Assembly: GCF_040400975.1 (NCBI RefSeq)
Contig: NZ_JBBAPF010000012.1
Coordinates: 27,893 to 91,892 of the forward strand
Direction: 5' to 3'
DNA: 64,000 nucleotides
From: Limnohabitans sp.
GTDB lineage: Bacteria > Pseudomonadota > Gammaproteobacteria > Burkholderiales > Burkholderiaceae_C
The translations under genes were made by a program, and so were the position numbers. Shown one piece after another: positions 15,460-25,775 of this stretch (position 1 is the stretch's first letter; each line of letters starts with the position of its first letter). The notes under the pieces are model-generated. The model was not told the DNA's origin. It worked only from the letters and a program-made list of their open reading frames with translations, and made no database searches.

Positions 15460-16374
15460 TCAGGCCATCAACTTATTCATGGCCTCTTCGTATTTGGCAG
15501 CCGTGTTCTCGATCACCTCGCGCGGCAGACGCGGAGCAGGCGGGGTCTTGTCCCAGGGCTTGCCGTTGATCTGGGCGCTTTCGAGCCAGTCGCGCAAAAA
15601 CTGTTTGTCGTAGCTGGGCGGGTTGGCACCCTCTGCATAACTTTCGGCGGGCCAGTAACGCGATGAATCGGGCGTCAACACCTCGTCCATCAGCACCAAC
15701 GTGCCATCGGCGTCCAAACCAAACTCGAACTTGGTGTCGGCAATGATGATGCCTTTGGCCGCCGCAATATCGCGCGCGGCTTTGTACAGCTGGATGCTGA
15801 TGTCGCGGATGCGGGTGGCCAGGTCGGTCCCGATCATCTCCACCGTGCGCTCGAAGGTGATGTTTTCGTCGTGCTCACCCACCGCCGCTTTGGCTGCGGG
15901 CGTGTAGATGGGCTCGGGCAAGCGACTGGCGTTTTTCAGGCCTGCGGGCAGCTGCACACCGCACACGGCCTGGTTGTCTTGGTACTCTTTCCAGCCGCTA
16001 CCGGCCAGATAACCGCGCACCACCGCCTCGACCGGGATGGGCTTCAAGCGCTTGACCAGCATGGAGCGGCCTGTGACCTGAGGCACCTCTTCGGCGCTCA
16101 CCACGCTCTCGGGGGCTTCGCCCGTCAGGTGGATCGGGCAGATGTTCAACCCCTTGGGGCCGAGTTGGTCAAACCAGAACAGGGCCATTTGCGTGAGCAA
16201 CACCCCTTTGCCGGGAATCGGCTCACCCATGATCACGTCGAAGGCGCTGATGCGGTCCGACGCCACCATCAAGATGCGGTCGTCACCCACCGCGTAGTTG
16301 TCGCGCACCTTGCCACGCGCCAGCAGGGGCAAAGAAGTCAGGGCCGAGGTGTGGAGGGCAGAAGAAGCAGTCAT
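15460..16374 (-). CDS. purC: phosphoribosylaminoimidazole-succinocarboxamide synthase
   Basis: 304 aa, long-form SAICAR synthetase (GKVRDNY ... SDRISAFD ... DTKFEFG). Its ATG overlaps the stop of the SWIM gene (ATGA). Confidence 0.9.
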
Positions 16375-20876: not shown

Positions 20877-21233
20877 TCAGCAGCAGTTCAGGACAGGGCA
20901 CAACACACCCAGCGTGTTGCGTACGATGTCGGGTTTGACTTGGCCGATGTTGCGCTTGACGATGCTTGTGTGAAAGGTAAACAGTTTGTCGGCGCGAATG
21001 AAACTGTCTTTCTTCAGAGTGCCTGCAACCATATCGGCATTGGACAGCGGCAAACTGCTCTTGTGTCCCGCTTGGCTGGTCACAGCGGCAGCGATGAAAT
21101 CACCATCACGATCAGGGTGCGTCATGAGCACAGCGGGACGCAGTTTATTGCTGCTCAAATCGGTGTAAGGGAACACTATCATCACCACATCTCCCACGTT
21201 GAATGTTGGTTTAGAGGTCATTCCAAATCTCAT
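20877..21233 (-). CDS. PemK/MazF-family toxin-fold protein (no cognate antitoxin gene seen)
   Basis: 118 aa. [12 protein letters not shown]...KLRPAVLMT...AVTSQ...IRADKLFT...NIGQV follows the MazF/PemK pattern (GD.v.v.F....G.E....RPalVl...TS....irvdql.t....iG). The start (21233 or ATG at 21221) overlaps the last codons of res. Confidence 0.7.
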
Positions 21234-24200
21234 CTTCTTCGTTGTCCCAAATGCCTTGAAGGCTTCGCATTTGTGCGTTCATAAAAAACTGTCGCTCTGC
21301 AGCTGCATCAACTTCGGTGCTGATGCGGGTGATTTCTTCAGTCAGCGTATTTTTGATGCGCTCGATGTCGGTGATTTCGCAAAAGTACCAAGGCAAGCCA
21401 CCGGCCAAGCCCAGTTGGGCGCGCTGCGCGTTGACGGCGGGCAGCCAGCGCTGGATGGTGAAGTAGCGCTTGAGTTCTTTGTCTTTGGCAAAGCCGGTGA
21501 TTTCGACGATCAGGTTGTACTGCTCACCTTCAGGGGTTTGCACGCGGCACAAAAAATCAGGGTGGTATTGACGCTCAATGCCTTGTTTGTCCACATACGG
21601 TATGGCAAAACCCAAAAAGGCGTTCTTCACGTAGCTTTGCACCTCGGACATTTGCTCAAAGGTCTTGGCGGCAATTTGCTCCCAGCTGTCGGTGTCGGCC
21701 ACGACAAAGTTCACATGACTTTTCTTAGTCGGGTAAACCGGCTTGGTGGTGGCACCGTGCACATAGGCCGAGCTGGAGCGTGGGTTGTAGTGGTTGAGCA
21801 GGGGCAAAATTTGCGGTGCACGCTCGGCTCCAGCGTCCAGGTGTTTTTGCAGGGCTGCCGCTTCAACGCCCAAATACACGGAACGGGCCACGGCCTTGGG
21901 GTCTTCCACACGGATCAGGCGCTTGTAGCGCGTGTCGGTTTCCCCCACCAGCTCGATCTTGTGGTCAAACCACTGCTGCGCAATTCGGCGGATGTCGGTG
22001 AATTTTTCGAGCTGGGGGCGGCCTTGGTCATCGCGGTAGTAGCGGCTCATGACTTCTTTGGCAATCCAGTACACCACCTCTTGGTCGCGCATGCTGTCTA
22101 CATCGGTGATCAGCTCTTGTTCTTCAGACGAAAAGGCACTGCCCATGGTGGTTTGGGTCGGGCGCTCGTTGAGGTTGAGTACGTGCAGGGGTGTGCTCGA
22201 AAAATCGGCGCGCACGCCTTCTAGATCGTGGCTGATTTTGTAGCCAAGCAGGTTGGGGAACTCGATGGCCAGCTCGGCGCGCTCGGGCATGGCGCGCAGT
22301 TGCTGGATGTCTTGCGGGGTAGGCGGGGTGGTTTCACCGCCTTTGAAGAACTTGAAGGGCACGCCGATGATGTGGGCGTATTCGGGCGGAAATTTGCCTG
22401 TTTTGGGGTCCAGAAAATACTGCCTGCGCCGCAGGGCACGCCCGGCCACTTGTTCGCACAACAGTTGCGATCCAAAGGCACGCACACCCACGATGTGCGT
22501 GACGGTGTTGGCATCCCAGCCCTCGGTGAGCATGCCCACACTGACCACACAGCGGATGTGCTCACCCAGCTTGCCGGGACGCCCCACGGTGTTGACGACT
22601 TCTCGCAACAAGTCCCCATCGGTCAGCGCTTCCACCGATTTGTCCGGGTAGCTCAAGCGGTACTCCCGTTTGAAGGCATCGATTTCAGGGGCGAACACCC
22701 GTTTGAATTCGTCATTGACCTGGCCTGAATTTTCCAGGGCCTCGGAGTCGATCAGCAAGGTCGGGGGCTTGCGGCGGCGCTGACGGGTATGGGGTTCGTA
22801 GTTCGAAAACAAAGGCAACAAGCCTTCCACCGCAAAGGGGTTGCCCTCATCGTCCACGGTTTCATAACCCGCGATGTGTTTGTAAACCTCCTTGGACACG
22901 GTCGTGTTGCTGCACACCACAATGAACACGGGCGGCGACGTCAGCAGGTCTTTGCCACGCTCACCGGATTCGCGCAGGCCTTGCTCGTACTTTTCGTAAT
23001 GCTCATAAAACTGCCGCAGGGCGGTTTTGAGCAAGCCAGGTAACTCAGGCGGGCGCTCCAAGGCTGCGTTGTCTTTGGTGCCTGATTTACCCACACCTTC
23101 GGCTTTGTCGCTCTTGCGTTGCCCACGTTGACCCTTCTTGAAGAGTTCGTCTTTGCAGTGGTCGTAAAGATTACGCAGCTTGGGTTCGTCCAACTCTTGC
23201 GAGGTGTCATCCACAGGCAAAAACGGAATTTTGACCAAGCCTGCCTCAATGGCTTCGATCAAGCCAAAGTCGCTGACCACCCAGGGGAAATAGGAATACG
23301 CTGGCCAGCCAGAGCCAGACAGGTAATAAGGCGTTGCAGACAAGTCATAGACCGCGCCAAGTTGCCAACGTTTGGCCATTTCACGCAAGCCGCTGAACCA
23401 TACTGCCGCACGCTCGTTTTCGGTGGCGCTGTTGTCCTCTTCGGTGTCTTTGCCTTTGGCTCTGGGCAAGTAACAGTGGTGCGCTTCGTCGTTGATGACG
23501 GCCATGCGCCTTCCGGGTTTGAAGTGGCTCAGCACCCGTTTGAGCATTTGCGAGACATCCTCTCGAGCCTGCACTTTTTGACCGTCTGCACCGATTTTGC
23601 CGTCCAAGGGGCTTCGCTTGTTGCCACCAATGAGCCGAGGTTCAAACGCATGGAAGTTGGTGATGCTCAGCTTAGCGTTCAATCCGGCCAATAAGCCCGC
23701 ATAGGCTGCAGGCACCAATTGACGTTCGCGGTAGTAGTCCTGTGCTTCGTTGTCGCTTTGCGCGTGGGTGTCGACTCGCAAAACGTTCAAACGGTCGCGA
23801 ATGGTTATGCCAGGTGCCACCAAAAGAAAATAGTCCACGTAGCGCGGATCGTTTCGGTATTGGCTGCGGTTCAAATAGTGATACAGGATCAAACAAGCCA
23901 TGACCACCGTCTTGCCTGTGCCTGTGGCCATTTTGAAGGCGATGCGCGGCAGCACGCTGGCAGGGTCTTCCACGCTTTCATTGGCCAAACGCAGTTGGTC
24001 CAGCACATGGGTGCCCACATTGGATTTGTATGCCACCTCATTGAGCCAAATGGCGGTTTCCACCGCCTCTTGCTGCGCAAAGAACAAACGCTTCCAGTCG
24101 GGGCGCTCAGGGTTCAAAAACCAAAACTGCAACAAGTCTCTGGTGACGCGACTGGTGACATCGGGGTAACCAGACTGCCGCCACAGTGATACTTGATCGC

Positions 24201-24504: not shown

Positions 24505-24537
24505 TAAAACAAAAAACCGCCATCAAAGGCGGTTTTC
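24505..24537 (-). terminator. rho-independent terminator of fba
   Basis: Stem aaccgcc / ggcggtt. On the minus strand the hairpin is followed by ttttttgtttt. Confidence 0.75.
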
Positions 24538-24559: not shown

Positions 24560-25624
24560 TCAGTTCACCACTTGCGCCAATTCACCCCGGGCATAACGGG
24601 CGGCCACCACCTGCAGGTTGTCGCCCTTGATCTTGGGCGCTTGGCCTTCGCAACCGAACTCCAGGTAGCGCTGCTTGCAGATTTGTTTGGCCGCTTCGCG
24701 GGCGGGCTTGAGCCATTCGCGGGCGTCGAACTTGTCAGGGTTTTCAAACAAAAATTTGCGCACCGCCGCTGTCATGGCCAGGCGGATGTCCGTGTCGATG
24801 TTGATCTTGCGTACGCCGTGCTGAATGGCTTCCTGGATTTCTTCGACCGGCACGCCGTAAGTTTCTTTCATCTTGCCGCCGTACTGGTTGATCATGGCCA
24901 GCAGCTCTTGCGGCACGCTGGACGAGCCGTGCATCACCAAATGGGTGTTGGGAATGCGCTGGTGGATTTCCTTGACGCGGCTGATGGCCAAAATATCGCC
25001 CGTGGGCTTGCGGCTGAACTTGTAAGCGCCGTGGCTGGTGCCAATCGCAATGGCCAGTGCGTCCAGGCCCGTGGCTTTGACGAACTGGGCGGCTTCTTCG
25101 GGGTCGGTCAGCATTTGGCTGTGGTCCAGCTTGCCTTCGGCGCCAATGCCGTCTTCTTCACCGGCTTCGCCGGTTTCCAAGTTGCCAAGGCACCCCAATT
25201 CACCTTCCACCGAGACGCCCAACTTGTGGGCCATGTCCACCACCCGGCGTGTCACGTCGACGTTGTAAGCAAAGTCGGCCGGGGTCTTGCCGTCTTCGAG
25301 CAAGGAGCCGTCCATCATCACCGACGAGAAACCCAGGTTGATCGCGCCTTGGCAGATGGCAGGGCTTTGGCCGTGGTCCTGGTGCATGACCAGCGGTATG
25401 TGTGGCCATTGCTCGGTGGCTGCCTGGATCAGGTGCTTGATGAACGGCTCACCCGCATATTTACGGGCACCTGCGCTGGCCTGGAGGATGACCGGGGCAC
25501 CGACTTCGTCGGCCGCCGTCATGACGGCTTGGACTTGCTCGAGGTTGTTGACGTTGAAAGCTGGAATGCCGTAACCGTTGACGGCTGCGTGATCCAGCAG
25601 CTCGCGCATAGAAACGAGTGCCAT
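24560..25624 (-). CDS. fba: class II fructose-bisphosphate aldolase (Calvin-cycle/FbaA subtype)
   Basis: [27 protein letters not shown] ... HQDHG ... GTSHGAYKF. Start trimmed to the ATG at 25624 (354 aa). Confidence 0.9.
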
Positions 25625-25775
25625 GGTGGTGATGTCCCGGGAAGTTTGAAAATATGAATGCACCGGGAGGTCGCCCGGCCAAAGATCGACCCAGATTTTA
25701 TAGGTTTCAGTTCGTCACGGTCCTGTACCACCTCCTGAATCGGGTGGCAGGTTCCAACATAAGCATGCGTCTTTC

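Follow-up and report, generated by a model that had tools for sequence, protein, structure and literature searches.

Organization of the operon

In the window analyzed here, a stretch of 64,000 nucleotides of Limnohabitans sp. DNA (contig NZ_JBBAPF010000012.1), a gene for a small protein of the PemK/MazF toxin type lies inside a restriction-modification (R-M) operon, and the restriction subunit encoded immediately upstream of it ends in a tail that resembles the C-terminal segment of an antitoxin. The operon comprises four genes on the minus strand, in the order res, PemK/MazF-fold gene, mod and SWIM/TPR gene. The features of its central part are as follows, with positions numbered from the first letter of the window.

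24462 to 21211, minus strand: res, 1083 residues; restriction/helicase subunit of the BPTD_3080 family, bearing the appended tail
21214 to 21318, minus strand: C-terminal extension of Res, 35 residues (1049-1083), missing from most family members
21214 to 21300, minus strand: part of the Res tail homologous to DUF2281 proteins, the last 29 residues, by BLASTP and hhalign
21211 to 21221, minus strand: overlap of res and the toxin gene, 11 nucleotides, ATGACCTCTAA, by direct reading of the sequence
21221 to 20877, minus strand: PemK/MazF-fold toxin gene, 114 residues plus stop codon; Pfam PF02452
21233, minus strand: ATG, alternative start of the toxin open reading frame (ORF; 20877 to 21233), which would yield 118 residues
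20860 to 18203, minus strand: mod, 885 residues; Type III-like N6/N4 DNA methyltransferase

The Res protein matches the NCBIfam model NF046055 (BPTD_3080 family restriction endonuclease) with 984 bits (cut-off 800) over residues 17-1043 of 1083, with ca. 40 C-terminal residues outside the profile, and contains a ResIII domain (SF2 helicase; Pfam match, 2.2e-8). The Mod protein matches the Pfam N6_N4_Mtase family (7.8e-34) and the PADLOC MTase_III model (6.5e-168). By family model and domain content, the R-M system of the window is predicted to be of the Type III-like Res/Mod kind. The mod gene starts 16 nucleotides downstream of the toxin stop codon, and the order res-toxin-mod is conserved across all toxin-bearing loci.

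The PemK/MazF-fold gene

An earlier note on this sequence had described a MazF-like ORF at 20877 to 21233 of the minus strand, beginning within the 3' end of res, and both elements of that description hold, since the protein matches the Pfam PemK_toxin family (PF02452) with 32.1 bits (cut-off 23.1) and the overlap is confirmed by reading the sequence. The same family is matched by all 18 scanned toxins that follow a Res tail of the acidic, Trp-containing (‘acidic-Trp’) type defined below, a set that includes the window and two extra loci. A profile of the toxin and its orthologs matches the S. aureus, M. tuberculosis and B. subtilis MazF proteins in the PDB (best match S. aureus MazF, 2.4e-5), and the top 50 Foldseek matches in the PDB to an AlphaFold2 model of the toxin (predicted local distance difference test, pLDDT, 78.5) are all MazF proteins, with template-modeling (TM) scores of 0.6-0.68 (ca. 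0.65). The fold predicted from the model is the MazF/Kid SH3-like barrel. Among relatives of the toxin, Arg 28 is invariant and position 48 is Thr (Ser in one sequence); in a hidden Markov model (HMM) alignment, these residues fall on RP and IT(g/s), conserved positions of S. aureus MazF. Arg 25 and Thr 48 of B. subtilis MazF are taken here to be the catalytic Arg and Thr/Ser, and, as judged from the alignment, the conserved catalytic pair appears to be retained in the window toxin.

The earlier note gave the toxin a length of 118 residues. An ORF of this length exists, but the true start is probably the ATG at 21221, giving 114 residues and an 11-nucleotide overlap with res, because nearly all homologs have 114 residues and because a Limnohabitans locus with 89% identity (L010; related loci are denoted by L numbers) has no upstream ATG. 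The overlap sits in the Asn-Asp-Leu-stop codons of res, with the toxin ATG inside the Asn-Asp codons, and is identical in L001, L007, L008 and L010. Close homologs of the toxin form just 21 clusters among 5.8 billion proteins. On every contig from this set that is long enough to judge, Res (1068-1081 residues), PemK and mod follow one another in this order, in some cases with an additional AAA_15/21 ATPase gene between PemK and mod, or a SEC-C/TPR gene after mod.

In place of the separate small antitoxin gene that stands beside the toxin in a canonical type II toxin-antitoxin (TA) module, the window has res upstream and mod downstream. No separate antitoxin ORF was found near the res/toxin junction on either strand in a listing of all ORFs of at least 20 residues, each of which is one of the three genes or lies out of frame inside one of them, and no alternative-frame ORF is conserved in position or length across 17 loci (the window and 16 related loci). 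The absence of an upstream antitoxin ORF, remarked on in the earlier note, is thereby extended to both strands and to the related loci, and a hidden antitoxin ORF was rejected as a candidate on the basis of the same listing and comparison.

The C-terminal extension of Res

The Res extension amounts to approximately 35 residues (1049-1083) rather than the ca. 45 previously suggested, as judged from the ends of tail-less relatives and from the end of the NCBIfam profile at residue 1043. Most BPTD_3080 members end about 35 residues sooner, with tail-less proteins stopping ca. 24 residues past the Trp of WYFCEITD (general motif W.F.E(I/V)(T/A)D); among metagenomic Res C-termini most are tail-less, and a minority are extended by 35-58 residues of a few distinct kinds. 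In an AlphaFold2 model of the last 400 Res residues, the terminal helix of the family runs on into the tail (residues 350-389), and the last ten residues, at the acidic end, are modeled with low confidence (pLDDT 55). The model fits an exposed appendage.

A profile of acidic-Trp tails retrieves stand-alone DUF2281 proteins of 64-66 residues, the C-termini of which read ...EWQNLMLAQSSSLADWNNEEDEVWNDVPAT and match the Res tail of the window (one example ends ...LMLAQSSSLADWNNEEDEVWNDV). In a pairwise BLASTP comparison, the window tail is identical to the DUF2281 protein P0150 at 17 of 29 positions (59%; E 3e-8), and hhalign aligns the tails with DUF2281 proteins at a probability of 96.3% (E 1.6e-9), the motif common to both being ..M.AQ..SL...W.NEEDE.WND. 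at the C-terminus. Furthermore, the DUF2281 genes in question lie directly 5' of, and overlap, PemK_toxin genes of 109-111 residues, the products of which share 38% identity with the window toxin (BLASTP, 9e-28) together with the motifs FPFTDLS..K.RP and C-terminal C....(G/N)C. In fact, even the junction is alike: both the fused and the stand-alone arrangements have the toxin ATG among the tail codons for W-N-D, at codon position 2 and with the relative frame unchanged, the two sites lying one codon apart. Among plasmids, the window toxin has its best match on pNPUN02 of Nostoc punctiforme, likewise beside an annotated DUF2281 protein (WP_041566668), which ends ...LMSESSLQKDWLKPEEEAAWQDL. In that plasmid (L101 1022-1716; NC_010632.1 42985-43680), the PemK-like ORF overlaps the 3' end of the DUF2281 gene and is absent from the plasmid gene table; its frame exceeds the usual toxin length (179 residues from a TTG start), and it may be an unannotated gene or a pseudogene.

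The Pfam DUF2281 model mainly covers the N-terminal part of the antitoxin (residues 6-40 of P0150), which has no counterpart in Res. The segment of Res that aligns by hhalign has its homolog in the C-terminal part of DUF2281, the toxin-binding region, and the autoregulatory N-terminal DNA-binding domain of type II antitoxins is missing from Res. Since Res lacks the N-terminal DUF2281 core, only the C-terminal, partner-specific segment would have been transferred. At the level of sequence, these comparisons show that the Res tail was captured from the C-terminus of a DUF2281-type antitoxin. The analogy with MazE/Kis-type antitoxins drawn in the earlier note finds no backing in homology: descent from MazE/Kis was rejected, as the acidic-Trp tail profile has no match in the PDB at E values up to 10 and the Res tail has no Pfam match, and among antitoxins the tail is closest to the DUF2281 type. 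In Synechocystis, DUF2281 has been listed among the antitoxins that partner PIN toxins (PMC4963859), and DUF2281 has been found by experiment to neutralize a VapC (PMC12654330).

Tail type and the identity of the following gene

A genome survey was carried out on 80 loci fetched with Res, rather than the toxin, as the query, of which 79 include a complete res 3' end; PemK genes were called by Pfam. The tails and the genes that follow them are distributed as listed here.

Acidic-Trp tail (..F(W/F)M.AQ..SL..W.(N/D)(E/D)DD..(W/F)..), 16 loci: next gene PemK_toxin in 15, truncated PemK remnant in 1 (L013)
LPDDF-type tail (..AW.V..LLA.LPDDF(F/Y)..GR.D.P..EQRE.. or ..RPGL.DDD), 30 loci: next gene PIN (PF01850) in 30 of 30
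Two other tails, 2 loci: next gene of the PIN family in both (one PF01850, one PIN_3)
Tail-less Res, 31 loci: next is mod directly or unrelated cargo; PemK or small VapC in 0 of 31

The check put forward in the earlier note, namely whether Res homologs carry the tail only with a MazF-like neighbor, thus comes out positive for the acidic-Trp tails, whereas the other tails precede PIN genes. In the surveyed sequences, the captured tail is shown to be kept in frame on Res only if the gene for its cognate toxin comes next. The one acidic-Trp locus that lacks a toxin, L013, retains an intact tail followed by a PemK remnant (GDIVLVRYPYSDGVGAKKRPALV) that has been truncated by a deletion extending into mod, and was dismissed as an exception to this rule because the remnant is present. 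The deletion, at L013 3888-4030, fuses the first ca. 30 PemK codons to the middle of mod. A second locus, L019 (5875-7495), looks decayed, with res reduced to an ORF of 429 residues and a PemK ORF without the usual N-terminus.

Tailed Res proteins belong mostly to one betaproteobacterial clade, and inside it the members of the two main tail classes are intermixed on a neighbor-joining (NJ) tree of the Res core. Fitch parsimony on this tree, a quick NJ tree without support values, requires a minimum of 12 changes among four states (none, acidic-Trp, LPDDF-type and other). Since the tail classes interleave on the Res tree, with the tail matching the toxin every time, tail and toxin appear to travel together as a cassette, and to have been swapped in at least several independent events.

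The LPDDF-type tails and their PIN genes offer an independent check, again from sequence, on the reading of the tail as an antitoxin segment. The PIN genes that follow these tails match the enteric VapC structure 3TND at 7e-38 and Rickettsia VapC2 (3ZVK) at 3.5e-29, and by this similarity are close relatives of tRNA-fMet-cleaving VapC. When the profile of the LPDDF-type Res tail is compared with the whole PDB, it matches an antitoxin chain, 3ZVK_E, over residues 43-77 of 78 (E 0.0014); in the solved structure of VapBC2, this segment is the C-terminal end with which VapB binds the toxin. A match of the PIN-linked tail profile to the hepatitis B virus (HBV) capsid (LLSFLPSDFFPSVRD) was discarded as a short-motif coincidence. 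Because the same Res family has repeatedly exchanged the tail and PemK-type toxin for a VapB-type tail and a VapC (PIN) toxin, tail and toxin would seem to form one functional unit.

Res tails of two additional kinds, ..LADELIAERREESKREDGL and ..SEQLRREYIYE / ..EDLRRENLYDDDGR, are present in Methylococcaceae and Bacteroidota, in each case with a PIN gene next (L057 4151-4707, L068 7045-7625 and L099 3001-4697; also P0069/P0071). Sequence searches of the PDB with the tails of L057, L068 and P0069/P0071 gave nothing meaningful, and no source antitoxin was identified for them.

Conservation and co-variation

In Res proteins sharing only 46-90% identity, the W..(D/E)4..(W/F) motif of the tail is more conserved than the linker that precedes it, and the tail codons show synonymous changes that leave the motif unchanged. 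The accumulation of synonymous changes under a constant motif indicates that the tail is likely to be under purifying selection. Within the PemK class, tail identity and toxin identity remain correlated after removal of the relatedness of the Res core (partial r 0.41, permutation p 0.0004). Furthermore, tails ending in ..E(I/V)W go with one toxin subgroup and tails ending in ..LF with another.

Proposed origin and mechanism

The locus can be read as a chimera of an R-M operon and a type II TA module. It is strongly inferred from the sequence that a DUF2281-type antitoxin and its PemK/MazF-type toxin were inserted between res and mod; the N-terminal DNA-binding and dimerization half of the antitoxin would then have been lost, and the toxin-specific C-terminal half fused in frame to the Res C-terminus, with the overlapping antitoxin/toxin junction kept. 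In the resulting arrangement, the last ca. 30 residues of Res, made up of an amphipathic helix and then the acidic motif W..EEDE.W, would dock on the PemK dimer and block the RNase site, and the 11-nucleotide overlap would couple translation of the toxin to the completion of Res synthesis. Because the antidote lies at the extreme C-terminus of a gene of 1083 codons, the toxin could police the retention of an intact res, in that a truncating res mutation or loss of the operon would remove the antidote and release the RNase, an addiction or quality-control function. In addition, a phage that degrades or inhibits Res, or halts its resupply, might free the RNase and bring about a shutdown of translation, a back-up form of abortive infection.

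That Res, through its captured tail, acts as the antitoxin that holds a PemK/MazF-type RNase in check is judged to be probable, with good though incomplete confidence. The suggestion of the earlier note that the Res tail is a fused toxin-neutralizing segment is in this respect backed at the sequence level by the DUF2281 homology, the gene context, the switching of tail classes and the co-variation of tail and toxin. A broader proposal, given even odds, is that this Type III-like restriction family has repeatedly captured unrelated antitoxin tails (DUF2281-type with PemK, VapB-type with VapC, and probably more types), such that Res would be the antitoxin of a swappable RNase-guarding device, with the RNase firing once Res has been truncated, lost or degraded, or once phage anti-restriction blocks it.

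Several points weigh against the assignment of an antitoxin role to Res. The E values with which the tail profile retrieves DUF2281 proteins from the database of 5.8 billion proteins are only 0.14 to 4 and are not significant alone; weak database-wide values are expected for a segment of only ca. 30 residues, and the case for DUF2281 homology depends on gene context and the profile-profile score combined. The missing Pfam match is a related difficulty, the Pfam DUF2281 model covering mainly the N-terminal part that Res lacks, and, given the absence of a PDB match, the mode of docking on PemK is proposed by analogy. Tailed and tail-less Res proteins fall mostly in separate clades, so that the presence or absence of the tail is partly confounded by phylogeny, which does not apply to the switching of tail classes. 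Furthermore, one metagenomic Res (P0109, L098 312-2374) carries a different tail of 30 residues, ..GAFGVWKNRGQDGLAYQDAIRKEWDR, and is followed by an ORF6N gene with no recognizable toxin, an unexplained exception to the rule that the tail predicts the toxin. Finally, the trigger that would free the toxin is purely conjectural.

Three other explanations were weighed. In the first, the tail recruits rather than neutralizes, tethering the MazF-fold protein as a subunit of the restriction complex (for example, one with an RNA- or DNA-binding or regulatory role) that is never freed as a toxin. The MazF/CcdB fold also serves non-RNase functions, the genes are tightly coupled in a single operon, and the optional ATPase or SWIM/TPR gene is suggestive of a larger complex. 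The toxin, however, belongs to the same subfamily as the PemK proteins of ordinary two-gene TA pairs and has kept the conserved residues, and the same position on Res can also take a VapB tail with an unrelated PIN RNase, which is a better fit to a generic logic of masked toxins; recruitment is accordingly thought unlikely.

In the second, the 3' end of res is translated separately from an internal start to give a free peptide, which would be the real antitoxin, the fusion to Res being incidental. In-frame Met codons are present in the window tail (FFMNAQMRSL), and gene-within-gene antitoxins, the RpnS products of Rpn, are documented (PMC10327210, PMC10400984). The internal Met is not conserved, however, being absent at that place from L013, L017, L019, L003 and L007 and from the PIN-linked tails, and neither a conserved internal start nor an alternative ORF is seen across the compared loci. 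Also, the tail is always in the Res frame, in ca. 50 loci and three tail types, which would be needless for a free peptide. An intragenic antitoxin is for these reasons regarded as improbable.

The third, that a TA module was inserted between res and mod, that a deletion fused the antitoxin remnant to Res and that tail and toxin are now functionless, draws on the status of the res-mod junction of the BPTD_3080 family as a hot spot for cargo and on the decayed loci L013 (truncated toxin and mod) and L019 (broken res), but is held to be improbable in view of the motif retained in Res proteins 46-90% identical with synonymous codon changes, the invariant Arg 28, Thr/Ser 48 and Cys pair of the toxin, the match of each of three tail types to its own toxin with repeated switching of tail classes on the tree, the co-variation of tail and toxin, and the inability of an active toxin without any antidote to persist.

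Comparison with known systems

The closest comparison for Res as a fused antitoxin is with the two-gene DUF2281 (COG5559) and PemK/MazF TA pairs, represented by the metagenomic loci L089-L097 and by pNPUN02, which have the same toxin subfamily, antitoxin C-terminal motif and overlapping junction as the window. The window differs from these pairs in having neither a separate antitoxin gene nor an N-terminal DUF2281 core, the segment ending instead a restriction enzyme of 1083 residues. Because that core is absent, autoregulation through an antitoxin DNA-binding domain cannot operate in the window.

In its proposed function, the locus resembles PrrC/EcoprrI, in which the PrrC anticodon nuclease is masked by the type Ic R-M enzyme EcoprrI (PMC3506569, PMC1484252). 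In both, the gene for an RNase-type toxin is part of an R-M operon that has no classical antitoxin, the restriction enzyme would be the inhibitor, and back-up defense once restriction is disabled is the likely shared logic (PMC1484252, PMC3506569). The components are different: PrrC combines an ABC-ATPase with a HEPN-type anticodon nuclease and is linked to type I hsd genes, whereas the window toxin is a MazF fold of 114 residues in a Res/Mod system. Moreover, the contact between PrrC and EcoprrI is not defined by a recognizable antitoxin motif, whereas the putative masking element of the window is an identifiable captured antitoxin peptide.

A likeness to VapBC modules (Rickettsia felis VapBC2, 3ZVK; enteric VapC, 3TND) applies to the sister loci of the Res family rather than to the window itself; in those loci, Res replaces the AbrB-type N-domain of VapB. 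Antitoxin function inside a larger protein is also found in fused and intragenic TA systems (the single-gene fusions in PMC11980606; Rpn/RpnS), in which antitoxin and toxin are fused or the antitoxin is nested within the toxin, whereas in the window it would be fused to a different, enzymatic immune protein and the toxin is separate.

R-M loci often bear toxins without antitoxins, and it was proposed in 2012 that immune proteins restrain the toxins encoded in their own loci (PMC3506569). Antitoxin-less toxins have also been noted in CRISPR and other immune loci, with PrrC/EcoprrI as essentially the sole worked example (PMC3506569). A full-text literature search of incomplete coverage, such that an earlier description is possible, gave no account of a fusion of Res to an antitoxin tail. 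The arrangement may be regarded as a variant of the known themes of type II TA modules and R-M-masked RNases, and the fusion itself appears to be undescribed. If correct, the interpretation of Res as antitoxin would supply a defined molecular mechanism for the coupling of immunity and suicide proposed in 2012, the locus being a sequence-defined answer for one family: a peptide of ca. 30 antitoxin residues on Res, in cassettes matched to two unrelated RNase toxins. It also suggests a way in which costly restriction genes could be protected from inactivating mutation. As a search image, a short antitoxin tail on a large defense protein followed by an ‘orphan’ toxin could lead to the re-annotation of many orphan toxins, and the coupling of Res and toxin is directly testable with simple constructs.

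Additional genes and flanking regions

The remaining gene of the operon and the genes that flank it are as follows.

18206 to 16371, minus strand: SWIM zinc-finger/TPR gene, 611 residues; 4-nucleotide overlap with mod; optional fourth operon gene
15460 to 16374: purC-like flanking gene
24560 to 25663: fba-like flanking gene

The product of the fourth gene has Pfam SWIM and TPR matches and corresponds to the PADLOC defense candidate PDC-S62 (1.2e-29). Homologs lie 3' of mod in six related loci (L009, L010, L011, L013, L033 and L040), a SEC-C/TPR gene occupies this position in L007 and L008, and the SWIM/TPR gene is found alongside either toxin class, as befits an optional fourth gene. A gene for an AAA_15/AAA_21 (ABC/OLD-like) ATPase of 579-584 residues separates the toxin gene from mod in several loci, which include both toxin classes (L001 10373-12112, L007 6822-8576, L008, L017 and L032), and the window is without it; PrrC likewise has an ABC-type NTPase domain. 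In tail-less family members, the res-mod gap is a hot spot at which unrelated cargo is found; in L056-L088 this includes ORF6N, Bro-N and KilA-N genes, an IS200 transposase, Schlafen/AlbA_2 with HATPase_c_4, zeta-toxin-like AAA_33 ATPases, a PIN_8 protein of 408 residues and DUF559.

The operon extends over 8.1 kb between the purC-like and fba-like housekeeping genes. Its guanine-cytosine (GC) content is 0.54-0.59, compared with 0.59-0.66 in the purC-side flank and 0.57-0.59 in the fba-side flank, and, being slightly below that of the purC side, gives the operon the look of a small inserted island. A scan for promoters and terminators within the operon gave nothing exceeding the shuffled expectation. 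Between fba and res, a strong hairpin followed by a T-run is found at 24537 to 24512 of the minus strand.

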